Below, in pieces: positions 3,945 to 39,216 of a stretch of 64,000 nucleotides of DNA. The stretch lies in assembly GCA_022790975.1 (NCBI GenBank), contig JAAVYF010000011.1:5158-69157 (forward strand), written 5' to 3'. Position 1 is the first letter of the stretch. Each line of letters begins with the position of its first letter. The position numbers were made by a program, and so were the translations under genes. Source of the DNA: Clostridia bacterium. Lineage in GTDB: Bacteria; Bacillota; Clostridia; TANB77; CAG-508. The notes below the pieces were generated by a model. The model was not told the origin of the DNA and did not search any database. It worked only from the letters and a program-made list of their open reading frames with translations.

Positions 3945-4047
3945 GTCTAACTTTATTTAATATGTGATAATATGATATAATTGCAGAAACAAAACTTGTT
4001 GCTGGAACTTAGTTATAGTTTTCTATTTTATTTTGATATGATATAAT
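3945..4047 (+). CRISPR. mini CRISPR array A: one degenerate repeat, a 30-nt spacer, one intact 36-nt repeat
   Basis: Intact repeat gttatagttttctattttattttgatatgatataat at 4012-4047. Degenerate copy at 3945-3981 still ends in tgatataat. Spacer tgcagaaacaaaacttgttgctggaactta at 3982-4011. Confidence 0.75.
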
Positions 4048-4144
4048 ATTTTCTCAAAAAATCAAGTGATATCAACATATTACTGGATTTTTTGTTTTAA
4101 AAAATAATTTTTTCTTATCAATTTTTCTATTAATTTTTCATTTT

Positions 4145-4354
4145 TTAAAAAAGCGATAATGTTTCAAATTCAAGTGTCTTTTCATATTTAGATTTTTTAC
4201 CCAATAGAATTTCAACATTTTCATATTGTCTTTCTGTAATTACTAAAACACGAATAGACCCTTCATTTTGTACATAAACATTTCTAAAAGCCATATATTT
4301 GCTTAAAACATTTATCAATCTATAGATTAAGACCGTAGATGCTTTAAGATAAAT
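4145..4354 (-). pseudogene. cas2: cas2 remnant (C-terminal ~68 codons only)
   Basis: Frame reads ...LINVLSKYMAFRNVYVQNEGSIRVLVITERQYENVEILLGKKSKYE..., resembling the C-terminal half of type II Cas2 (compare [21 protein letters not shown] in S. pyogenes Cas2). It has no N-terminal beta1/Asp region and no ATG at the 5' end. It begins about 20 nt after the cas9 stop. Confidence 0.6.
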
Positions 4355-4373: not shown

Positions 4374-7300
4374 CTATTTTTTATTTATATTAAAAGGTAA
4401 TCTTTTTTCTGGCAATTTAACTTTATGATAATTACCTAAAATATCTACTTCATATTTTTCAAACTTTTTTAAAGATTTTATTCCTAAATTAGTTTGAATA
4501 TATTTATTATCATGTGTTTGTATTGTTATTGATGCTACAGAAATTCCTGCTTTTATATAATAAGCAAATAATTCTTCTGCTTCTATAGAATCTTTATTTT
4601 TAATATTAGGATTTAACTTTACTTTATTATTTCCTTTTATGTAAATCAAATCTTTAGGATATAATGAGAAAATAAAATTTCTATCATCCATTTCTTTCCA
4701 TTTTACATAATCTTTATTAGCTACACAAGCTTTATTAGGGAGTTTATTCTTTACAGTATCACTAACATAAATTGGAATAAAATAATATCCTTCATTCTCA
4801 ATATAAAATACATCAAGTCTCACACAATTACCGATTTGCTGCAAATGCTTTTCCGTTATTCAATTCAACCCCTAAAGTTACATTAGATTCTATTTTAACT
4901 TTTCTAACAATTGGACCTTTACTTCCATCAGATTTTGGTTTATAAAAATCTTCTTTAAATGCTTCTTCACCCTTACCTCCATATTCCAATAACCTTGTTT
5001 TCAAAGCATCATATAGTAACCCATCATCTCTTCTACAATTTTCTGGATATCCTTCTATCTCTCCATCTTTTAGTTTCAATTTTGTTAATTCTGTTTTTGT
5101 AATTGTTTTTATTTTTTCTTCGTCTTTTTTTATACCTCTTATCGTATCTAAATGTGCGCTTCCTTTAACTTTTCTTCTAGGCATTCTTGATACAAATATA
5201 GGTTCTAAATCTTCATCATTCTCATAAGTATAAATTTTCTCAGCTTTTAAACACTCTATCATTCTTTCTTTAGAACTGCAATTAACTCTTATATCTAACT
5301 CTTTTCTAAATTTAGTCCATGGCTCAGGAAAATATATTCCATTATTTTTTTCATATTCTTTAGAATTTAAAATCTCTCCTGTTTCTAAATCAATATATTC
5401 TCCTTTGGAATTCATAAATTTCCCATCATTATATTGATAATATTTTGTCAATTTATTAATCATTTCTTGTGTAGTAGTAGCAATTATTGTAGCATCAATT
5501 GCATGATGAATATCTCCATCTCTTAATTTTTCAATTCCTAATCTTTTTCTTATATGAGCAGTTAGCTTACCATTTACTGTCCATACTTTTCTTTCAAAAT
5601 TAGGATTATCTGAAAACTCTAAATTATTTCTTATTAAATTATACATTAATTTACAAATATATTTTGTATCATTTAAATTTCTTTCCTTCCATTCTTTTGC
5701 ATCTTCTCTTGTAAAATCTTCCTTTAATAATCTTTGTTGTTTTCTAAAATTCTTTATATATCTATTTACTCTAATTTCATATTCTTCAACGTTTTTTCCT
5801 GATTCCTTTATATATTTATACGGTACTCTATTTCCTTTTTGTCTATTTTCGCTTGCAAAAACTAGCACTTTATTATTATAGCTATCATCAAAACATGCAC
5901 TATATGGAATAATGTGGTCAACATCTACTGCTTCTGTAAATAAATCTTCTAATTTTATATGTTTTCCTGAGTATATACATACTCCATCTTGCTCTTGCCA
6001 CAACTTGTATTTTACAATATCCTGACCAGTAACATAGGCTTTTCCTAATTCTTTTATATGTTCTTTAGATGCACTATTTATTTTTAAGTTTTCTTCTTGT
6101 TTTTTTGAAATCATATTTCTGTATTTTAAATTTTTTCCCAATTCTCTTGCAAGTTCTACAACTACAACATCAAGTTTACCATACTTATCATTATACTTTA
6201 AAGTAATAGCATTTAAAACCTTAATTGCTTGTGAAATACCACGTCTTACTACTGGATTCGAAATTTCTTGTTCTAAATCATTAAGACTTAGCTTTCTTTT
6301 TTTCTCTGTATTAATTTTTCCTCTAAAATCTTGATAAACATTATTAACTGCTTTATCATAAGTAATTCCTTTCTCTAATTCTGGAATAATTTTTTTCATA
6401 GCTTTTATTGATAAATTTCCAACTTTAGAAAAAGATACTTTTAATAATTCATCAATTGCTTCATCAGTTAAATTTATTGTATTTTCTCTTAAATATCTTT
6501 CTCTTTTCTCATCATTTTTATATATAGTTAATGCATATCCAATACTATCTAACTCATCTATTGATAGTTTTAAAATATAATCTTTTTCTATTTTATTTAA
6601 AGCTTTTTTTATTTTCTTATAGCTTTCAAATTCACTTAATTTTTTAGATTCTTCAGCTTCTTTTGTAGCCTCATCTGAAAAATCTATTACACCTTTATAT
6701 GTAACTAAATTAAATCTTTCAAAATTAGAAAGTTGTAATTCTTTTCTAACATCATAATAAGTTAAATTAATTTTAGAAAAAATTAAATCTTCTATTTTAT
6801 CTCTTTCTTCATTAATTAATGGTCTTTTAAGTTTATCTTTGCTTCCATCTTTGTTTATAATAGTTTCTTCTATTTTTATATGATTTAATGTTTGTAAAAA
6901 TTTAAACTTCTCAAATGTATAGCACGCTTTAGGAGCTCTATATTCTGTACTTTCAAAAGTACATTTTCCAAGCATATTCTCAATTAAATTTCCACCAAAT
7001 GGACTTGGACTTCCTGGTCCATCATCAAAATTTCTTTGAGATTCAAATATTTCTATGTATTCATTTATAAAATCATCTGTAATCATAGAATTTAATTCTT
7101 TTTGTTTGTTTAAAATTAACTTTATTTCATCAACTAATAACGTTCTAAGTGCAGTATTTTTATAATCTCCTATAGAATTCTTTATTTTAATAAGTGGATT
7201 AGAATTTTTATCTAAAATAAACTCTCCATTTTTGTTTTTTAATTTAAATTTGTCATCTTTTAAATACATCTCTGAAACAGTTCTATATCCTTTTTCTTTC

Positions 7301-7782
7301 ATCAAAATCTCATTTTCCTTTGTTGCTGTTAATAGCTTTCCTGTTTCTTTGTCATTTTTACTTTCTTCAGATTTACTATTTGATTTATATCCTCTTTTTT
7401 TTACAAAACTAATTAAAACTCTTGCAAGTTCTTTGTTAGTTAGTTTTTCATCTAAACCTTGCACTTTTAATTCATATACATTAAATGGAAATTTATAATT
7501 TTCATACATTTCATCTATTTCTTTTTTAGAAATTAAATTATATCTTTCTAATAATCTTTTAGTACGCTCAACTCTATGTTTTTTTCTTCTTAGTCTACGT
7601 CTTCCTCCTCTTGCATCTCTTCTTTCTTTTGCAAGTGAAGAACCATCTTTTGAATTTTCTGCTGAATCAAAAATTCTTGAACCTAAATCAATAATTCTTT
7701 GAGGTTCTCCATTTTCATCATTTTTAATTACAGACCATCCAACAGATGTTATTCCAATATCTAATCCTATTCTATATCCCAT
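4374..7782 (-). CDS. cas9: Cas9 (about 1135 aa, compact type II). The ORF is broken at in-frame CGG 4833..4831 and is continuous if the C is skipped.
   Basis: RuvC-I IGLDIGITSVGWSVI, Arg-rich bridge helix RRDARGGRRRLRRKKHR, HNH DVDHIIPYSACFDDSYNNKVLVFASENRQKGNRVPY. The C-terminal PI-like segment VRLDVFYIENEGYYFIPIYVSD lies in ORF 4374..4844. The junction ...AFAAN-(C)GGT-NCVRLDVF restores the NG.xVRxDVF pattern. Start ATG 7782 follows GGAGG. Confidence 0.9.
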
Positions 7783-7799
7783 ATTTTCCTCCATATATG

Positions 7800-7930
7800 T
7801 AGATAGCTGCCCAATAAATGGACAGCTAGTGCTTTACGACGCATAAGTTCTAAAATAAAACTTAGGTCTTATTATAGTAACCTATTCTACTTTGATATGA
7901 TATAATTTTTGTGCCATTCCCTATAGCACA
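7800..7930 (-). ncRNA. predicted tracrRNA (anti-repeat 7906..7871, then nexus and hairpins), co-directional with cas9 and immediately upstream of it
   Basis: The minus strand reads AUUAUAUCAUAUCAAAGUAGAAUAGGUUACUAUAAU-AAGACCUAAGUUUUAUUUUAGAACUUAUGCGUCGUAAAGCACUAGCUGUCCAUUUAUUGGGCAGCU. The anti-repeat is complementary to the 36-nt repeat at 31/36 positions, with an internal 2-nt mismatch after an 8-bp lower stem. The UAAGAC following it parallels the UAAGGC of known tracrRNAs. Candidate promoter: TTGACA 7964..7959, 17-nt spacer, TAATAT 7941..7936. Ends are not mapped. Confidence 0.6.
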
Positions 7931-8244
7931 CTATTATATTAATATACTTTTGTATATTTGTCAATATTTATCTAAGATAATATTAGACAAATATCAAATA
8001 AATATAATATATTTTAAATTTTATTTTTTTTATTGAATATATTATTCAACTCCTTTCATTTTTATTTTATCAATTATAAAAAAATATTGACATTATACTA
8101 TGATGGAAGTTGCTTTTCTACAAGGCTAAAGTCTTGTTACTACTGGCGTAGTCAGAAGATTATATAAATTAAAATATCAAAATCTTATAATATTTTGATT
8201 TTACTTTATATATTTAAAATTCATTATTTACTCCAATCTCTAAA

Positions 8245-33045: not shown

Positions 33046-34059
33046 TTAATTACCAACTCTATTTTCTTTTTTTCCAAATTGTATATAATGCTTTATGTAT
33101 TCTTTATTATTATCTCTAAATATTTTTCTTAAATCTTTATATTTATTTTTATATGCTAATATATAAAATTCACTACTTGAAGCTCGTCCTTCATTTATAC
33201 CATGGTTCAAGAAATGTTTTAAAGCCTCTATATTACTCATATTTCTTAAATCTGAATTAGAATTTTTATAAAATAAAACATCAAATTCTACTGAAGCTTG
33301 CCTTCCTTCATAAATACCATTTTTAATGAAATGCTCATAAGCTCTAGCATAATCATTTCCAAATATTCTTTTTAAATCTGGATATTTATTTAAATAAAAT
33401 ATACTATCAAATATATAACTTCCTCTTCTTCCTTCTTTTAATCCATATGTTATGAAGTGACTTTTTAATTGTTGCTCATTTCCTCCAAATGCATTTTGTA
33501 AATCTAAATAAGATGAGTTATACAAATCTGTGTCGAAAACATCTAATATTTCATTTTGAACATTAACTTGCAGTTTTCTTTTTATATCTTCTTTAAATTT
33601 ATTCCATTCACATGGATTTTTTACATAATATCTAGGACATTCTTTTCTTGTTACATCATAATGTCTAATTATATTATTTTCATTTAAGTTATATCTTTTA
33701 CAAATATCAACACATAATTCAACTAAAGAATTATATGTACTATTATTGAATTTTCCGTTCCAGTCTGGATGGCAATTTTCTATTCCTATGCTCTTTCTAT
33801 TCATTTCACTATTACCAGCATGAAAAGCTACTTCATTTTCTGGAATACATCTTATTATTTCTCCATTTAATCCTATAATATAGTGTGCTGATGCTTGAGT
33901 AGTATATGTTAATTTTAAATTTTCAAAATAATTACGATTAACAATAGCTGAAGTATTGGGATTGCCTATCCAGTGAACTACTATATTTTCTATTTTATTT
34001 TGTTTTTCTCCTGGTCTACTATATTTATTAATTGTTAACAATTTCTCTTGAATATTCAT
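33046..34059 (-). CDS. N-acetylmuramoyl-L-alanine amidase endolysin (amidase_2/PGRP fold) with four C-terminal ~40-aa repeats
   Basis: N-terminal ...IVVHWIGNPNTSA...AHYIIGLNGEI...AFHAG...IIRHYDVTRKECP. The C-terminus has four repeats of the form F.x.Y...Y.DL...F......H...G..EGR. Confidence 0.85.
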   Translation of the reverse strand: MNIQEKLLTINKYSRPGEKQNKIENIVVHWIGNPNTSAIVNRNYFENLKLTYTTQASAHYIIGLNGEIIRCIPENEVAFHAGNSEMNRKSIGIENCHPDWNGKFNNSTYNSLVELCVDICKRYNLNENNIIRHYDVTRKECPRYYVKNPCEWNKFKEDIKRKLQVNVQNEILDVFDTDLYNSSYLDLQNAFGGNEQQLKSHFITYGLKEGRRGSYIFDSIFYLNKYPDLKRIFGNDYARAYEHFIKNGIYEGRQASVEFDVLFYKNSNSDLRNMSNIEALKHFLNHGINEGRASSSEFYILAYKNKYKDLRKIFRDNNKEYIKHYIQFGKKENRVGN

Positions 34060-34128
34060 ATATATTACTCCTTTCTTTTTTATTTTTGTATGATATATTA
34101 GAAAATAAAGTCTATACAGAATATGAGT

Positions 34129-34234
34129 ATTATAGTTCCCTATTATATTTTGTTATGATATAATTTCTTTGAGCAAATTCAACTGTATTATCTGGTTATA
34201 GTTCTTTTTTATTCTCTAATTTGATATGATATAA
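34129..34234 (+). CRISPR. mini CRISPR array C between the holin and endolysin genes: repeat, 30-nt spacer, degenerate repeat
   Basis: attatagttccctattatattttgttatgatataat at 34129-34164. Spacer ttctttgagcaaattcaactgtattatctg at 34165-34194. Degenerate 40-nt repeat copy gttatagttcttttttattctctaatttgatatgatataa at 34195-34234. Confidence 0.7.
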
Positions 34235-34268
34235 AAAGCTAGTAACCACAATAAATTACTAGCTTTTT
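34234..34268. terminator. hairpin terminator, homologous to the one after array B
   Basis: aaaagctagta pairs with tactagctttt. It lies directly downstream of the holin stop (34278) on the minus strand and directly after array C on the plus strand. Confidence 0.65.
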
Positions 34269-34277
34269 ATATTTTAC

Positions 34278-34706
34278 TTATTTTTTATTATCTAATTCTG
34301 TTGTCATTTCTTCTAATAAATGTACAACTTTTTCTTGCATTTTTTTAGGAACTGGTAAATCACAAAGAACCATATTTTTTAATACACTTGTTATCTCATA
34401 AAGTACAAACATTAATCCAAAAAGTTCACAAGTAGCTACTCTTTCTAATTTTATAAATTCCATTACTTTTTCTGGAACCATAAAAAGAAAATTTAAATTT
34501 AGAATTTTATCAAAAATAGACAGAAAAAAAATGCAACCTATCATTGCAATTTTTCTTAACATTCCATTTATACCAACAGTGCTATTCCATTTATGTTCCT
34601 TCCATGCTCTTATAGAACCTAAAAAAGTATCTAATATCAAAAAAAGCAATAATGCTTTTATAACTATATTTTCCATTATGTTAAAAATTAAGCTTTCTAT
34701 ATTCAT
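34278..34706 (-). CDS. phage holin (holin_4 / LL-H-like family)
   Basis: MNIESLIFNIMENIVIKALLLFLILDTFLGSIRAWKEHKWNSTVGINGMLRKIAMIG..., with three TMs, located upstream of the endolysin. Confidence 0.75.
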   Translation of the reverse strand: MNIESLIFNIMENIVIKALLLFLILDTFLGSIRAWKEHKWNSTVGINGMLRKIAMIGCIFFLSIFDKILNLNFLFMVPEKVMEFIKLERVATCELFGLMFVLYEITSVLKNMVLCDLPVPKKMQEKVVHLLEEMTTELDNKK

Positions 34707-34725: not shown

Positions 34726-36495
34726 TTAAATTTGATAATATGTATTATTTCTTTTATTAAAAGTAAATGTAATACTTTCATTTGGTTGTAATGTAATTGT
34801 TTCTGTATCTTTCCATAAAATATTTCCTGTAGAGTCTTTAGTAATAGTTCTTGCCATAGTATAAGTATTAATTATAGTAATTTTAAAAAAAGAAAATCTA
34901 ACATTTAATGATTTAAATATTAGATCAGATGCCATTTGATAAAACATATTTGTATTAAATTTAGGATTTTTATTAGTACCATTAAAGAATGATGGTGAAT
35001 CTATATATAAAGCCTGATCTTGATATATAGTATTTATTGATGATGATACATCTCCTATTGCCCCAGCAATATTTCTTCCTGTAAAAGTTCCATTAATTTG
35101 TGTATATCCATCATTTCTAAAATCTTGAATATGAACTTCTTCTCCTGATAATAAGCATCCTTTTGTTTTTCCTTTTATATTTGAAAAATAACATTTATTT
35201 AAGTTGGTTGCACTTATAATTCTTGATGGACTTCCTACTCCATAAGAATTATAAATCGAATTTACAAAAGAAACATTACAATTATCACAATTATCCATTT
35301 GTATATCATTTAAAGATGCATGAGAAATTATATTTTCAACATTAATAGTTTTGCAATTTTTAATTAAAATAGTTCTTAAATTAATGTTACTTGATGAACT
35401 ATCATACGCTCCATTAGAAATATTTGAAATTATTCCTGTATCTGTATTATAAAAACCTAAAGTATTAACGCAATTTTCTGAATATACATTAGAAATATTT
35501 ATATTTTTATGTTTTATTCCTTCTTCATAAGCAGAAGATGCACCAACTACAATTGCTGTTGTAGGTTTATTCTTTATTACTATATTATTTATATAAATAT
35601 CCTGTGCTGCTTTTTTAGTTGCAACCCATATTCCTTCTGAGTTTTCCCCTGAATCAATATAGCAATTTGTAATATTTATATTTTTAATTGGATAATCTCT
35701 AGAATCAAACATAATTCCAACATCAGAATAGTTTATATTGCAATTATTAACATACACATTAGAACAGTTCCAACCTCTTATTGCTATATATTTATTATTC
35801 TTTAGTTTAACATTTTCTACTGTAACTCCATCTACATTAAAAAATTGTAATTGATGTATTCCATCTTTGTCATCTCCATCTGGATTATTTATATAATCAC
35901 AATCTATTTCTAAGTCATGAATATAAATATTTGAACATGAAGGGTTAGATTCTAAATTTCCAAATGCAATAAAATCAGTTCCTCGTTCAGTATTTGGCAA
36001 AGCTTTAATAACAGAACTTCTTGTTCCATAAAATTCTATATTAGATTTTGTTTTATTTTGATTTATATCCATACACATATATATACCTGTTGGAACAAAA
36101 ATTTTATTATAGTTTTTAAAAGCAATTCTAAATGAATTAGTGTCGTTTGTTTCTCCATCTCCTTTTGCACCTAGTTGTTTTACATTTACTTCATTATTTT
36201 TAATTACCAATTTTGCTTTTAAATTATTAGCTAAATTATGTACTGTTCCGTTATCAGAAATTAAAGAAGAGTCATTTACAATTTCATATAAACCAGCCCC
36301 TCCATCATTTTTTTCATAATATCCTAATGTTTGAACTACATCTCCCACTACTAAAGAAGTACATTCTTTAATTTTTTCAATAGTTTCAATACATTTAATA
36401 TTTTCAAGCTCATAAGCCTCTTCGGCTTTATCGAAAACTTGCATATTTTCATTATCATTTTCTATTATTTCAGAATTTAAAAATTTATTTTTCAT
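34726..36495 (-). CDS. tail fibre / depolymerase with pectate-lyase-type beta-helix
   Basis: VKQLGAKGDGETNDTNSFRIAF (Pectate_lyase_3 signature) is followed by many N/I-rich beta-helix rungs. The first ~30 aa are shared with the preceding gene. Confidence 0.7.
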   Translation of the reverse strand: MKNKFLNSEIIENDNENMQVFDKAEEAYELENIKCIETIEKIKECTSLVVGDVVQTLGYYEKNDGGAGLYEIVNDSSLISDNGTVHNLANNLKAKLVIKNNEVNVKQLGAKGDGETNDTNSFRIAFKNYNKIFVPTGIYMCMDINQNKTKSNIEFYGTRSSVIKALPNTERGTDFIAFGNLESNPSCSNIYIHDLEIDCDYINNPDGDDKDGIHQLQFFNVDGVTVENVKLKNNKYIAIRGWNCSNVYVNNCNINYSDVGIMFDSRDYPIKNINITNCYIDSGENSEGIWVATKKAAQDIYINNIVIKNKPTTAIVVGASSAYEEGIKHKNINISNVYSENCVNTLGFYNTDTGIISNISNGAYDSSSSNINLRTILIKNCKTINVENIISHASLNDIQMDNCDNCNVSFVNSIYNSYGVGSPSRIISATNLNKCYFSNIKGKTKGCLLSGEEVHIQDFRNDGYTQINGTFTGRNIAGAIGDVSSSINTIYQDQALYIDSPSFFNGTNKNPKFNTNMFYQMASDLIFKSLNVRFSFFKITIINTYTMARTITKDSTGNILWKDTETITLQPNESITFTFNKRNNTYYQI

Positions 36496-36544
36496 TATAT
36501 TATCTCCTCTTTTTTATATTTAAAATTGTTCTATATTTTACTTT

Positions 36545-38146
36545 TTATAACTCGCAAATTGAAACAAAACTAGAACCACCATTCCCAGATACTAAAACTA
36601 TTCCTTCAGCTCCTTGATACCATTTAATTTGTATATCATCACCTTTTTTTAAATCATCAAAAATATATGAAAATTTTAGTGAATCCCAAGCTCTATCTAA
36701 ACTTTGAGTTATTTCTGTAAATTTAGCAACTTCACCATTTCTGTAAACCAATATTCTAAATCCATAATTTCTTGATACTGTAAACTCAGTAAATCTAAAA
36801 TTTAAAATAAATAAAGCTAATTCTACATCATCATTTACTATAATATGTCCTGGTACTACTGAAAATTTATTTCCTTTATTTACAGCTACTGTATCTATAA
36901 CTACACTTGAACGGTTAGATATAATATCACTTGTAGGTCTTTCCGCAGCACTATTAAAAGCAACTAACATACTTTTTTCTTCTTCTTTAATTTCTCTCCA
37001 ACTTCCATAATTAATATTATCAACATCAATAAATTCTATAAATCTACGCCAATGTTTACCATTATTATTATAATATAAGTCTTGTCTAATGAAATTATCT
37101 TCTAAATTTTCATCAAAATTTTCATATGACGACTGAGTCATTAATGTTTTTAAAATAATTCTTCTATCTTCAACTATTCTTGTTGGTAATCCTTGTGTAT
37201 TAACATTAATTAATAAACTATACTCTCCTGGGTTTAAATATTTTTTATCATTTACTGATAAACATTGTGTTTCTTGATATGTATATCCCAATTGATAAGA
37301 AGCATTATTGTCACATGAAGGAATTCCTATAACTTCTTGAGTTATATTAGTACCATTTCCAGTTAAAATTGTTGCTGTAGTTTTTGTTCCTTTATCATTA
37401 CTAATATTTATTGATTTTATATAATTTTCACTGTCTTTATCTAATTTAGTTTCTATCAAATTCAATAAATTTCCTGCAACATCTCCACTTAATGTTGTTT
37501 TTACTCTTTCAAACCAATTATTAAAATTATTTTCAAATTCTTCTTGTTTTTGATTTAAGTTTATTTCACCTTCTTCAGTTACTCTATTTAACCAGTCCTT
37601 ATATTGATTAAACAAAGTAGTTGTATCAACATGCTGTAATTGATTTGCTACTATTCCACAAACTTCTGTATTTAATCTTAAATCTGTTATATTTTCTTGT
37701 TTTATTTCAATTACATTAGCATTAATTCTTACATCTGCAAGAGCTAATTCATATATATCATAATCTCTTTGTAAATCAGGTACAATTGGATTAGCACTTG
37801 CAATTCCTTTTTTTACAAACAAATTAATACTTCTATCTTCCAAATTCAACCTTGCAACAATTCTATCAATTCTTGGTTGTATATCACTTTCTTCTATTTC
37901 AAAAACTTCTTCATTTTCTACCCATCCCATATATCCATCTATATAACATACTCCTGTACTAACTTTAATTTGCATTCCATTTTTAACTAGTACTTGCATA
38001 TTAGTTGACGGATTTGGAAATACACCATTTGAAATAAATTGACTAAAATATTTTGCAAAAAAAGAAGCCTCTTCGGCTCTATCAAAAACTGGCATATTTT
38101 CTGCATCATACCCTATTATTTCAGAATTAAAAAATCTACTTCTCAT
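36545..38146 (-). CDS. baseplate upper / receptor-binding protein (BppU-like N-terminus)
   Basis: MRSRFFNSEIIGYDAENMPVFDRAEEASFFAKYFSQFISNGVF is a typical siphovirus BppU-type N-terminus. Position is after the Tal-like gene. Confidence 0.6.
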   Translation of the reverse strand: MRSRFFNSEIIGYDAENMPVFDRAEEASFFAKYFSQFISNGVFPNPSTNMQVLVKNGMQIKVSTGVCYIDGYMGWVENEEVFEIEESDIQPRIDRIVARLNLEDRSINLFVKKGIASANPIVPDLQRDYDIYELALADVRINANVIEIKQENITDLRLNTEVCGIVANQLQHVDTTTLFNQYKDWLNRVTEEGEINLNQKQEEFENNFNNWFERVKTTLSGDVAGNLLNLIETKLDKDSENYIKSINISNDKGTKTTATILTGNGTNITQEVIGIPSCDNNASYQLGYTYQETQCLSVNDKKYLNPGEYSLLINVNTQGLPTRIVEDRRIILKTLMTQSSYENFDENLEDNFIRQDLYYNNNGKHWRRFIEFIDVDNINYGSWREIKEEEKSMLVAFNSAAERPTSDIISNRSSVVIDTVAVNKGNKFSVVPGHIIVNDDVELALFILNFRFTEFTVSRNYGFRILVYRNGEVAKFTEITQSLDRAWDSLKFSYIFDDLKKGDDIQIKWYQGAEGIVLVSGNGGSSFVSICEL

Positions 38147-39216
38147 TATATCATCTCCTTTATTTTTTTCATATTGTAATCTTCTCCAAAAACTATTTCT
38201 ATGGTTTTACTTCCATTTTCATAACTTTCTGTAATTCCTACAATTCTATTTTCAATATTAAAATTTAATTTATCATTTTTATATACTACTTCATCACCTA
38301 AATCAAAATCTCTTTGATATTCTAAATTTGATAATAGATTTACATTAAAATTTGCTGTTTCTACTTTATTGCATTCATTTAATTTTTCAATTCCTTTTTC
38401 AATTAGCATTTGTTTATATTCTTCATCTGTTAATTCTCCATCTTTTTGTAAATCTTTTGCTTCTACATATAGTTCTCTACGTTCTTCACCATCTTTCACT
38501 CTATTAATTGTAACAACAGTTTCTTTTCCATTGTCTTCACCTACAACATATGCAAAATTACAATACTTTGTATTATCTATAGAATATTCATCTTCAAGTA
38601 TATTTTCAAAACTTCTTGAAAATATAGCCCATGAATTTAAATCTTGAGTATCTTTTCTATTTAATCCTTGCCATACTTCAAAAATCATTTGATTATTATT
38701 AAAATCATATCTTATTTGAATACTAAGTTCATCTTCTTTGCATAATTCATATATTTTATCTAATAAATTATCGCCTGTTATTTGAATAGTATGTTTTTTT
38801 CCTATGGCTTTTCTTTTGCCTAAAACTAAATTTGGTATTTTTCTATCTCCAGAATTAATAATAAATGTATTAACTAAATTACGAATAATATCCTCTGATA
38901 TCATATCTTTAAATATTTGTGTATTATCAATAACTCTTTGTGCCAATTTACTTTCTAAAAATCTACCTGATATCTGAATTTCTGTTCCTTGAATAGTAGT
39001 TTTATAATTTAAATTTTCTATTACTGCAGTTTCAGTAAAATCCTTTGAAGATATATATACTGCGTCCTTAAATTTATTTAAATATTTAATATTTATTTGT
39101 AAATTAAAATTTCCACATTCATAATATTTTCTATTCCAAACTAAACTAGAAAAATCATCTATCAAGCCACATATTTGAAAATCTTTATCTAATAAAAATA
39201 ATTCCATCCTATACAC
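38146..39216 (-). CDS. tail-associated (Tal / Gp37-like) protein
   Basis: MELFLLDKDFQICGLIDDFSSLVWNRKYYECGNFNLQI matches the siphovirus Gp37-like minor structural family. Position is after Dit. Confidence 0.6.
   Translation of the reverse strand: MYRMELFLLDKDFQICGLIDDFSSLVWNRKYYECGNFNLQINIKYLNKFKDAVYISSKDFTETAVIENLNYKTTIQGTEIQISGRFLESKLAQRVIDNTQIFKDMISEDIIRNLVNTFIINSGDRKIPNLVLGKRKAIGKKHTIQITGDNLLDKIYELCKEDELSIQIRYDFNNNQMIFEVWQGLNRKDTQDLNSWAIFSRSFENILEDEYSIDNTKYCNFAYVVGEDNGKETVVTINRVKDGEERRELYVEAKDLQKDGELTDEEYKQMLIEKGIEKLNECNKVETANFNVNLLSNLEYQRDFDLGDEVVYKNDKLNFNIENRIVGITESYENGSKTIEIVFGEDYNMKKIKEMI

Follow-up and report, generated by a model that had tools for sequence, protein, structure and literature searches.

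Sequence analysis confirmed that a genuine CRISPR mini-array of the host's type II-C repeat family is located in a phage-derived tail cluster, with the holin gene on one side and the endolysin gene on the other, within a window of 64 kb, the whole stretch of DNA analyzed (Table 1). A first-pass annotation had proposed a mini-array of the host Cas9 system at this site, and its description is borne out: repeat R1 differs from the consensus at 3 of 36 positions, a 30-nt spacer (S1) follows, and a degenerate terminal repeat (R2) closes the array. Its placement of the array in the lysis cassette is likewise upheld by the flanking Phage_holin_4_1 and Amidase_2 genes.

Table 1. Coordinates, in the window, of the lysis-cassette mini-array, its flanking genes and the cas9-linked features.
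Feature	Position	Strand	Remarks
Lysis-cassette array, overall	34064-34273	+	R0, S0, R1, S1, R2, terminator
R0, degenerate leader-side repeat	34064-34099	+	ATTACTCCTTTCTTTTTTATTTTTGTATGATATATT; 11/36 mismatches to consensus
S0, leader or pseudo-spacer	34100-34128	+	AGAAAATAAAGTCTATACAGAATATGAGT; 29 nt
R1, near-consensus repeat	34129-34164	+	ATTATAGTTCCCTATTATATTTTGTTATGATATAAT; 3/36 mismatches
Extended -10 promoter motif of R1	34156-34164	+	TGATATAAT
Promoter-like site inside R1	34129-34156	-	ATAACA, 16 nt, TATAAT; points at endolysin
S1, spacer	34165-34194	+	TTCTTTGAGCAAATTCAACTGTATTATCTG; 30 nt, period 66
R2, degenerate terminal repeat	34195-34234	+	40 nt; in register with R1
Bidirectional intrinsic terminator, array trailer	34228-34273	both	stem GCTAGTAA/TTACTAGC with A/T-run extension
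Holin	34278-34706	-	142 aa; Pfam Phage_holin_4_1, E 3e-20
Endolysin	33046-34059	-	N-acetylmuramoyl-L-alanine amidase with C-terminal repeat domain; Pfam Amidase_2, E 1e-30
tracrRNA gene	7796-7964	-	directly upstream of cas9; read from sequence
cas9	4374-7794	-	Pfam HNH_4, RuvC_III, Cas9_a, CjCas9_PI_CTD; PADLOC Cas9 C-terminus
Array A	9420-9695	+	degenerate first repeat, three repeats, three spacers, terminator
Array B	3970-4110	+	leader end, one repeat, terminator; directly downstream of cas9

Architecture of the mini-array and its kinship with the cas9-linked arrays

When the window was scanned with the 36-nt consensus repeat (GTTATAGTTCCCTATTTTATTTTGATATGATATAAT), four matches were found, compared with none in each of 100 dinucleotide-preserving shuffles; the three matches other than R1 lie at 4012, 9547 and 9613, all in arrays flanking cas9. 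Just 10 sites in the 64-kb window have 11 or fewer mismatches to the consensus, eight of them in three arrays, one in the tracrRNA anti-repeat, and one at 6854 inside cas9 that looks like a chance match. To the repeats described earlier we add R0, which keeps register with R1 from 65 nt upstream, is similar to the degenerate repeat that opens array A, terminates in a motif like an extended -10 (TGATATATT), and overlaps the endolysin ribosome-binding site, which is carried on its reverse complement. R2 has an intact 5′ portion of 10 nt (GTTATAGTTC) and keeps its last ∼13 nt, which end in TGATATAAA, around a scrambled middle that includes a 4-nt insertion. Substitutions in the full repeats are confined to positions 11–25, G1A excepted, and spare both the 5′ end, for tracrRNA pairing, and the 3′ end, with the promoter motif. 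The length of S1 and its 66-nt period are those of array A and of the array in sister strain L013; it is uncertain whether S0 is a true spacer. Rfam returned sub-threshold matches to CRISPR-DR34 only, for R1 and for the consensus repeats alike, and no match to a tracrRNA family. Chance AT-rich similarity, which the first-pass annotation named in one of its possible refutations, is ruled out by the shuffles and the register of the three repeats, as well as by the trailer terminator in common with the cas9-linked arrays and the perfect repeats beside cas9-cas1-cas2 in L013. Because three in-register repeats at 65–66-nt spacing are accompanied by spacers, the feature classifies as a mini-array and not as a solitary repeat in the sense of PMC10651486.

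The array runs in the direction of the cas9-linked arrays and against that of holin and endolysin, consistent with the antisense arrangement first described, and it ends at a hairpin. The hairpin folds strongly on both the + strand (-18.3 kcal/mol, z -9.4) and the - strand (-21.4 kcal/mol, z -7.7) and is flanked by A and T runs, indicating a bidirectional intrinsic terminator. A consensus terminator scan did not call this hairpin, probably on account of its 10-nt loop, which is longer than the 8 nt allowed by the tool. The terminators behind arrays A and B are its homologues. The terminator also weakens the suggestion that an antisense transcript controls the lysis genes, since + strand transcripts would end 5–10 nt before reaching the holin stop codon, without overlap with any coding sequence. 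Repeat-internal promoters are established in type II-C systems (review PMC5965381), and R1 ends in an extended -10 motif. Read on the - strand, the first six bases of R1 give TATAAT, part of a promoter-like site that matches 10 of 12 positions in a consensus scan and points at the endolysin, whose start codon follows after ∼70 nt; the site might act as a promoter, and promoter-like sites are not in excess across the region (three found, 4.6 expected).

A type II-C cas9/tracrRNA locus lies 26 kb from the lysis-cassette array in the same window. The tracrRNA gene comprises a promoter (TTGACA at 7964-7959 and TAATAT at 7941-7936, 17 nt apart), an anti-repeat (7906-7871) and then 3′ hairpins, with a transcript fold of -44.1 kcal/mol (z -6.0). 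The predicted duplex with the anti-repeat has an energy of -30.8 kcal/mol for R1, versus -39.2 kcal/mol for the consensus, and -26.7 kcal/mol for R2, whose spacer-proximal 8 bp are intact; pairing of R0 is weak (predicted -17.5 kcal/mol), and shuffles gave -8.1±2.7 kcal/mol. Thus, a cognate effector and a tracrRNA whose anti-repeat is predicted to pair with the repeats are encoded in the same genome, though cas9 is split. A 1-nt insertion divides the gene into a 984/988-aa ORF (7794..4828) and a 156-aa ORF (4844..4374), the latter corresponding to the C-terminal part of the PAM-interacting domain. The two are colinear with a full-length homologue, P0003, with the junction at residues 981|982. 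Cas9 in this strain would need a +1 frameshift, for which AAT-C-GGT-TAA (∼4828-4844) is the candidate site, or function as two pieces. The dN/dS values of the halves (0.18 and 0.23) indicate that both are under purifying selection, and a cas9 naturally split by one inserted base with both halves so maintained is an observation in its own right.

In L013, cas9-cas1-cas2 adjoins seven perfect copies of the same repeat, forming a main array with six spacers whose transcription converges with that of the cas genes. The L013 segment 4642-5696, which contains cas1 and most of cas2, is missing from the window, to which this absence applies; copies elsewhere in the genome are possible. Array B is evidently a remnant of the main array after deletion, and array A is the closest paralogue of the lysis-cassette array. 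All three arrays in the window have the same leader architecture and trailer terminator. Comparison of the arrays shows that the lysis-cassette array is a paralogue of the cas9-linked arrays, having the same repeat family, a degenerate first repeat and a trailer terminator. A phage contig, L023, also has the type II-C repeat as a single, perfect copy with no other repeats, so mobile elements of the host clade do carry these repeats; this copy is a candidate RNA anti-CRISPR against the same Cas9 system.

The carrier element, inheritance of the array and its spacers

Gene calls give the same 142-aa holin product in at least 23 contigs and an identical endolysin protein in 15. In three related phages (L015, L016 and L045), a holin and an endolysin of the same families are neighbors, at 87% and 81% amino acid identity, respectively, between L015 and the window. 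This recurrence supports the earlier assignment of the endolysin to the same element, and it rules out the array as a mere element boundary; the array is cargo inside the lysis cassette. The corresponding slot in all three phages is occupied by a HicA/HicB toxin-antitoxin pair instead of an array, which makes this gap a cargo slot. On these phage-like contigs the lysis genes are followed by HTH regulators; in L017, a further phage-like contig with which the holin-endolysin pair is syntenic, an integrase comes after the endolysin. Nine IMG/VR phage loci with a related amidase domain had neither this holin nor any repeat, and exact-protein look-ups of the 167-aa holin ORF, the 988-aa cas9 ORF, P0127 and P0242 gave no result.

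The remainder of the element encodes Dit, a Gp37-like protein, tape-measure pieces, a Gp15 chaperone and a tail completion protein, together with a sigma-like regulator and an XRE and ImmA pair. No portal, terminase or capsid genes were found in the tail cluster, which therefore has the gene set of an F-type tail-like bacteriocin, in which tail genes and regulators accompany a lysis cassette in the absence of capsid or packaging genes. Like the carriers of virus-borne mini-arrays, it is a virus-derived element without cas genes, and its array has one or two spacers. The tape-measure gene is broken into four ORFs (40050-42357), the last of which (135 aa) is called as a separate gene in two further contigs (L001 and L002), and some contigs have a 533-aa tail protein in two parts of 200 and 306 aa. 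The fragmentation of the tape-measure gene makes particle production doubtful. The carrier is a fixed chromosomal, tail-only (siphovirus-type, tailocin-like) prophage remnant that has partly decayed.

The array was present in all 17 metagenome contigs covering the holin-endolysin intergenic region, from more than 12 different samples, and is heritable. Samples with the element include ERZ14864793/4, ERZ14889263, ERZ15043455, SRR33949423 and SRR29872682. Three of these contigs (L004, L006 and L007) carry a form with two spacers, compared with one in the window. The extra spacer is TCTGCAAATTGGCTACCATATTGAATTACTG, and the homologue of S1 (TGTTTTGAGCAAATTCAACTGCATTATTGG) differs at 5 of 30 positions; S0 is identical in all 17. 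R1 of the window is an exact chimera of positions 1–18 of R1 and positions 19–36 of R2 of the two-spacer form. Alignment of the two forms shows that the window form arose from the two-spacer form by a repeat-repeat deletion, with loss of one spacer unit, and that the array predates the split of two element lineages. The two forms differ at 12 of 139 positions in the array and at 7 of 433 in total in the holin. In the trailer terminator the changes fall just in the loop and in the flank before the core stem. Because the divergence of the array approximates that of neutral sites and 5 of the 30 spacer positions differ, the guide shows no detectable purifying selection. Contigs do not vary across 34060-34128, nor across the endolysin block (0 differences in 1014 nt), and a recombination breakpoint between strain lineages lies inside the array, with 0 differences to its left versus 19 in 581 nt to its right.

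The protospacer search called for by the first-pass annotation yielded none for S1 in the window, the fetched loci, IMG/VR, INPHARED, PLSDB, GTDB species representatives or JGI metagenomes, the collection scans accepting exact words only. Three of the six L013 main-array spacers, used as controls, were also matchless, and the missing protospacer is for this reason weak evidence either way. No match to S0 was found elsewhere, and the matchless L013 spacers left nothing from which to derive a PAM. The mobile-element interpretation stands insofar as a true array resides in a phage-derived cassette, while its proposed aim at a rival phage or tailocin is not supported by a match. Scans with 21-mer cores matched just 21–24-nt cores in four unrelated genes, encoding a type I restriction R subunit (L011), an AAA ATPase (L012), a 1520-aa surface protein (L018) and a phage-region protein (L019). 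We rejected all four as protospacers, since the PAM-proximal end is mismatched, the genes are unrelated and no flanking motif is common to them. They are best explained as coincidences of AT-rich codon usage, several encoding N-A/T-V-E-F-A; L019, in a phage-like region, is a weak lead. Within the window, neither a full-length spacer match at 9 or fewer mismatches nor a seed match in promoter regions was found, ruling out self-targeting or regulation there. S0, S1 and their variants also have no 3′-anchored match of at least 8 nt and no internal match of at least 11 nt to the cas9/tracrRNA upstream region, the array A leader or the element regulatory region; the partial PAM-proximal complementarity to a regulated promoter that marks crRNA-like regulators is thus absent within the window. 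The few host spacers seen include no match to the element.

Candidate functions of the array

We tentatively favor the reading that the feature is an orphan type II-C mini-array, carried as accessory cargo between holin and endolysin, that guides the host Cas9 via the tracrRNA. By analogy with the type II-C systems of Neisseria and Campylobacter, the extended -10 at the 3′ end of R1 would start transcription a few bases into the next spacer, R0 possibly providing a second start site, and the transcript would run through the following repeat to stop at the trailer terminator. The product would be a crRNA with a guide of ∼24 nt and a repeat part that pairs with the tracrRNA made from upstream of cas9; the duplex would load the host Cas9, and the guide would direct it against DNA absent from the window and not yet sampled. 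A competing phage or other mobile element is the most plausible target, again by analogy, and the array was probably acquired at the phage stage of the element, with which it has been passed on ever since. This reading draws its weight from two usable repeats that are predicted to pair with the tracrRNA far beyond shuffles, from purifying selection on cas9 and from the presence of the array in all 17 contigs; the matchless spacer, the near-neutral divergence of the array, the degenerate repeat downstream of S1, the missing cas1/cas2, the split cas9 and the decaying tail cluster count against it. A more specific version, which we consider unlikely, is that a domesticated tail cluster actively programs the split Cas9 against intact relatives of its ancestral phage as a hard-wired superinfection guard. 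The targets would then be, for example, head or connector genes lost by the remnant, and the holin-endolysin gap would serve defense cargo in general, with a CRISPR guide in one lineage and HicA/HicB in its siblings.

The array could instead be a neutral relic: recombination would have copied part of a host array, with its leader, a few units and trailer, into the lysis cassette, where it drifts without function and persists only through its location between two genes that are retained. We regard this as a distinct possibility, albeit a doubtful one. Degeneracy in two of the three repeats, roughly neutral divergence with 5 of 30 spacer positions different, the spacer unit already lost and the matchless target searches all fit such drift, as do the decay of the tail cluster itself, the deletion of cas1/cas2 and the collapse of the main array in this strain. 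Yet the substitutions in the full repeats avoid both functional ends, the terminator stem is intact, with changes limited to loop and flank, R1 and R2 are still predicted to pair strongly with the tracrRNA, and cas9 is under purifying selection; the independent substitutions are too few to decide. Co-option of transcription signals, to which any guide function would be irrelevant, is in our estimation quite improbable. The terminator, strong on both strands and immediately past the holin stop codon, would insulate holin from endolysin, and the repeat promoters, including the - strand TATAAT that G1A created in R1, could drive the endolysin, given the 10/12 site ∼70 nt upstream of its start and the overlap of R0 with its ribosome-binding site. 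The invariance of 34060-34128 would suit this idea, but it is common to the whole endolysin block, and promoter-like sites are not enriched (3 vs 4.6 expected). Moreover, the array-less L015 appears by eye to have an A/T-flanked inverted repeat just upstream of its endolysin; if so, separate expression of the endolysin predates the array.

Action on the host CRISPR system, as an RNA decoy or a regulator, has phage and prophage precedents (PMC10651486; bioRxiv 10.1101/2023.03.03.530964, 10.1101/2024.10.29.618823), either by Racr-like titration of tracrRNA and Cas9 or by promoter repression of the crlRNA, tracr-L or viral sgRNA type through partial complementarity. The perfect solitary repeat on L023 and the predicted tracrRNA pairing retained by the degenerate repeats are compatible with it. 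We nevertheless judge it very improbable here, as S0 and S1 lack the 3′-anchored (≥8 nt) or internal (≥11 nt) matches to regulatory regions of the window, the unit is a repeat-spacer-repeat array rather than a solitary repeat, and the element is a fixed chromosomal remnant without a match among the few host spacers seen.

If active, as in the guide reading that we prefer, the array would widen the known range of mobile-element mini-arrays to include a type II-C Cas9 with repeat-internal promoters, a domesticated, tail-only carrier and a site within a lysis cassette, and it would represent heritable immune memory that persists on a prophage remnant after loss of the host cas1/cas2. If a relic, it offers a clean, datable case of array copying, spacer loss by repeat recombination, and decay. 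Comparison with the sibling phages presents the holin-endolysin gap as an exchange slot for defense or competition cargo, a CRISPR guide versus HicA/HicB, and as a useful place for finding new cargo. To those who work on Cas9, the split cas9 and the solitary repeat of L023 may matter more than the array.

Comparison with known systems

The window array is a further example of the known habit of phage-derived elements of carrying mini-arrays. Such arrays are described from the Saccharolobus portogloboviruses SPV1 and SPV2 and from surveys of viral genomes (PMC11656645, PMC7099407). The window array resembles them in having one or two spacers, repeats of the host family and a virus-derived carrier without cas genes. 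Their spacers mostly match related viruses, however, whereas no target was found here; the repeats in the window are not identical to the host's, with three mismatches and two degenerate copies; and their carrier is an active virus, in contrast to a fixed, tail-only, partly decayed remnant. The type II-C repeat family, the putative repeat-internal promoters and the tracrRNA also set the window array apart. The prophage arrays of Clostridioides difficile (PMC4173771) are likewise Clostridia prophage arrays that rely on host Cas proteins, but they are of type I-B, have 7–24 spacers that match known phages, and lie between xkdN and the tape-measure gene, compared with one matchless spacer of a type II-C array in a lysis cassette. 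Racr loci (PMC10651486) are host-subtype repeat mimics on prophages, intergenic and downstream of a promoter, a description that L023 fits. The window feature departs from them in its three in-register repeats with spacers.

F-type (non-contractile) tail-like bacteriocins such as the Listeria monocins consist of siphovirus-type tail genes, regulators and a holin-lysin pair, without capsid or packaging genes. The carrier has the same gene set, differing in its fragmented tape-measure gene, and we know of no CRISPR array in an F-type tail-like bacteriocin cluster. Similar in array design are the type II-C systems of Neisseria meningitidis and Campylobacter jejuni (PMC5965381), which also have a 36-nt repeat ending in an extended -10 (TGnTAnAAT), a tracrRNA beside cas9 and, as in L013, a main array convergent with cas9-cas1-cas2. 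Their arrays are chromosomal and adjacent to cas genes, whereas the window array lies 26 kb away in a phage-derived lysis cassette, with promoter activity that is putative. The Neisseria repeat has ∼25 of 36 positions in common with that of the window family.

A mini-array of the host type between holin and endolysin

A real, heritable type II-C mini-array lies between the holin and endolysin genes, where the lysis cassette of a tail-only prophage remnant has a slot for cargo. The first-pass annotation had described a repeat (R1), a spacer (S1), a degenerate terminal repeat (R2) and a terminator at this position; all four were confirmed, and the array proved to be one unit longer, with a further degenerate repeat (R0) on the leader side (see table). 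R1 matches the 36-nt consensus GTTATAGTTCCCTATTTTATTTTGATATGATATAAT, copies of which lie at 4012, 9547 and 9613, and no match was obtained in 100 dinucleotide-preserving shuffles. Only 10 sites in the window score as well as R0 in a Hamming scan: eight fall within the three arrays (A and B, which flank cas9, and the lysis-cassette array), the remaining two are the tracrRNA anti-repeat and a site inside cas9, apparently a chance match. The hairpin at the end of the array forms a strong fold whichever strand is read (−18.3 and −21.4 kcal/mol; z = −9.4 and −7.7) and has runs of A and T on either side; it is therefore a bidirectional intrinsic terminator. The array is antisense to both lysis genes, as had been noted. 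The accompanying proposal that its transcript controls them is unlikely, since + strand transcripts would stop short of the holin coding sequence.

Features of the lysis-cassette array, its carrier and the host CRISPR locus (window coordinates unless a contig is named)
Feature	Coordinates	Strand	Remarks
R0, degenerate repeat	34064-34099	+	Hamming scan, 11 mismatches; 65 nt upstream of R1
S0, leader or pseudo-spacer	34100-34128	+	29 nt, left between R0 and R1
R1	34129-34164	+	3 mismatches to 36-nt consensus
S1, spacer	34165-34194	+	30 nt
R2, terminal repeat	34195-34234	+	degenerate; first 10 and last ~13 nt retained, 4-nt insertion mid-repeat, end TGATATAAA
Terminator hairpin	34228-34273	both	folding energy
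Holin	34706..34278	-	Phage_holin_4_1
Amidase endolysin	34059..33046	-	Amidase_2
cas9	7794..4374	-	HNH_4, RuvC_III, Cas9_a, CjCas9 PI-CTD; PADLOC match to Cas9 C-terminus
tracrRNA gene	directly upstream of cas9	-	promoter TTGACA, 17 nt, TAATAT; anti-repeat 7906-7871, then hairpins
Array B	3970-4047	+	short array
Array A	9420-9648	+	short array
Solitary perfect type II-C repeat	L023 9560-9595	same as genes	intergenic, just upstream of RusA-like gene
Tandem repeat	56521-56645		25-nt unit, ~5 copies (repeat finder: four overlapping 50-nt copies)
Tandem repeat	18455-18540		15-nt unit, ~5-6 copies (repeat finder: four overlapping 41-nt copies)

The proposed kinship with the host Cas9 system is borne out by a sister lineage (contigs L013 and L014, Cas9 93% identical to that of the window), in which cas9, cas1 and cas2 are followed by an array of seven perfect consensus repeats and six 30-nt spacers, transcribed convergently with the cas genes and closed by a terminator. 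Homologous terminators follow all three window arrays; that of array A is nearest to the lysis-cassette one, with identical stems and similar loops. In both of these arrays, moreover, the first repeat is degenerate and the first full one begins with A rather than G, and R1 and the consensus repeats alike give a full-length, sub-threshold + strand match to Rfam CRISPR-DR34. Sequence comparison therefore identifies the lysis-cassette array as a genuine copy of a host array.

State of the host cas locus

The window (24% G+C) carries a type II-C-like CRISPR locus on its − strand. A single extra base (AAT-C-GGT TAA, junction at ~4828-4844) breaks its cas9 into ORFs of 984 and 156 aa, which correspond in order to residues 1-981 and 982-1133 of a full-length homologue; the shorter ORF represents the C-terminal part of the PAM-interacting domain. 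An identical split is present in the 93% identical gene of the sister lineage (L013 1115-4529), suggesting +1 frameshifting or a naturally two-chain Cas9. Because both ORFs have been under purifying selection since the two lineages separated (dN/dS = 0.18 and 0.23), Cas9 is probably still made, by one or the other of these routes.

A deletion in the window strain, evident from comparison with L013 (window 3946-4275 versus L013 4642-7489), has removed cas1, the greater part of cas2, six spacers and small ORFs on the leader side; array B, with a leader end, one repeat and the terminator, is all that survives of the main array. The flanks are 99.8% identical between the two, whereas the cas9 region is only 93% identical. 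Compared by eye, the "spacer" of array B resembles the leader end of the L013 array. The cas locus of this strain is unable to acquire new spacers. Within array A (9456-9612) the first spacer is only 25 nt and the other two are very AT-rich, one containing TTGACA; AACTTA ends one spacer each in arrays A and B, and such spacers may not be ordinary acquired ones. A possible defence gene a few kb from the cas9 locus (14732-17221, +) encodes 829 aa with an adenosine deaminase domain and has a weak PADLOC match (E = 1e-7) to a CARF-adenosine deaminase model.

The carrier, its cargo slot and population forms

Upstream of the holin, the − strand encodes a pectate-lyase-like tail fibre protein, a 533-aa tail protein, a Gp37-like protein and Dit, together with tape-measure pieces, a Gp15 chaperone, a tail completion protein and a sigma-like regulator. 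Beyond the tail genes come, on the + strand, an XRE repressor and its neighbour, an ImmA/IrrE-type protease, with a tRNA gene next; no portal, terminase or capsid gene was found in the cluster. The carrier is a tail-only, siphovirus-type cluster of ~16 kb resembling an F-type tailocin. The tRNA gene itself (49927-50006, −) lies just past the regulator end, with no integrase seen, and may mark the ancestral prophage integration site. Four ORFs make up the tape-measure gene (40050-42357, −), the last of them called separately in independent assemblies too, and several independent contigs have the 533-aa protein (36545-38146) as two pieces of 200 + 306 aa (breakage in L001, L028, L030 and L035). 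Part of the population, at least, may therefore have a decaying cluster. A 115-nt direct repeat of 81% identity (36401-36515 and 38052-38166) covers the 5′ ends of two adjoining tail-fibre-like genes, whose products have common N-termini (M-K/R-x-K/R-F-L/F-N-S-E-I-I). A longer, unrelated gene takes the place of the downstream one in strains of the L004 type, suggestive of an exchange of receptor-binding proteins.

In three phage-like contigs (L015, L016 and L045), homologues of the window's holin and endolysin are likewise paired, which places the endolysin in the same module as the holin and answers the objection, raised in the first-pass annotation, that the endolysin might not belong to the element. 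L015 is 87% (holin) and 81% (endolysin) identical in protein, and 84% (holin-gene region) and 82% (endolysin gene) in nucleotides. In place of an array, their gap holds a HicA/HicB toxin-antitoxin pair (L015 4188-4833, L016 1823-2468, L045 4503-5148), and in L017 the two genes abut, with an integrase next. These arrangements indicate that the gap is a cargo slot of which the array is one occupant.

The intergenic region is covered by 17 metagenome contigs from more than 12 different samples. Fourteen have the window form, and three (L004, L006 and L007) have a two-spacer form consisting of R1, TCTGCAAATTGGCTACCATATTGAATTACTG, a second repeat, TGTTTTGAGCAAATTCAACTGCATTATTGG and the terminal repeat. 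The window R1 is an exact join of positions 1-18 of the two-spacer R1 and 19-36 of the second repeat, and the window form therefore arose when repeat-repeat recombination deleted one spacer unit. Between L004 and the window there are no differences in ~1080 nt of endolysin and leader, 12 in 139 nt of array and 7 in 433 nt of holin, and the tail fibre gene is replaced outright; a recombination breakpoint between strain lineages falls inside the array.

Targets and possible functions

For S1, its variant in the two-spacer form, the extra spacer and S0, searches gave no protospacer in the window (up to nine mismatches), in ~290 kb of fetched loci, in IMG/VR (exact words) or in INPHARED and PLSDB (blastn); GTDB species representatives and JGI metagenomes, scanned only with the 21-nt core of both S1 variants, gave none either. 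This core has five matches on four contigs, distributed over four unrelated genes, whose products are a type I restriction R subunit, an AAA ATPase, a surface protein of 1520 aa and a protein from a phage-like region. They were rejected as protospacers (≤24 contiguous bases, PAM-proximal bases missed, no common 3′ motif) and are treated as codon-usage coincidences. The canonical spacers of the sister strain served as controls and also went unmatched, three of six by exact match in IMG/VR and all six in the BLAST collections. Viruses of this uncultured Clostridia bacterium are evidently poorly sampled, and the missing target of the suggested attack on a rival element thus carries no weight against function.

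For the consensus, the predicted duplex with the tracrRNA anti-repeat has an energy of −39.2 kcal/mol; R1 reaches −30.8, the terminal repeat, whose first 8 bp are intact, −26.7, and R0 −17.5, against −8.1±2.7 for shuffled repeats. R1 also retains the extended −10 TGATATAAT; in the type II-C systems of Neisseria and Campylobacter, such repeat-internal promoters start crRNAs within the spacer (PMC5965381). As the most likely mechanism, which we advance tentatively, promoters inside the repeats would yield one, perhaps two, tracrRNA-dependent crRNAs, and these would arm host Cas9 against a competitor so far unsampled. The main rival, a neutral relic, is a serious if rather doubtful possibility: the overall divergence of the array is close to that of neutral sites, so that selection on the guide is not demonstrable, and the common spacer differs between the two forms at 5 of 30 positions. 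Against it, all changes in the full repeats but G1A are confined to positions 11-25, sparing the tracrRNA-pairing 5′ end and the 3′ promoter, and those in the terminator to the loop and to the flank immediately preceding the core stem, a pattern compatible with constraint, though resting on only ~6 independent events.

The array could instead supply co-opted transcription signals, the terminator stopping holin transcripts before the endolysin and a − strand promoter inside R1 driving the endolysin. A promoter-like site (10/12) does lie there, its TATAAT made by the G1A change, but such sites are not enriched in the region, and the HicAB-bearing L015 shows, by eye, an apparent inverted repeat, bordered by runs of A and T, immediately 5′ of the endolysin; if a terminator, it would make separate endolysin expression older than the array. 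We consider co-opted signals unlikely. Slightly less probable still is a decoy or regulator of the host CRISPR system. A regulator of the cas promoter (crlRNA or tracr-L type) finds no seed complementarity in the cas9/tracrRNA upstream region, the array A leader or the element's regulatory region, and an RNA anti-CRISPR is at odds with a unit that is not a solitary repeat. However, L023 (IMGVR_UViG_3300028591_001399; 27% G+C), a bona fide phage contig with portal, terminase, homing endonuclease, RusA and RNA ligase genes and no known spacer matches, bears one perfect (36/36) copy of the repeat. This copy is a candidate RNA anti-CRISPR for the Cas9 system, or a captured promoter, and it indicates that mobile elements of the host clade carry type II-C repeats. 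Mini-arrays on mobile elements are an already known class (PMC11656645, PMC7099407), among which the array described here is unusual in its CRISPR type, its carrier and its position.
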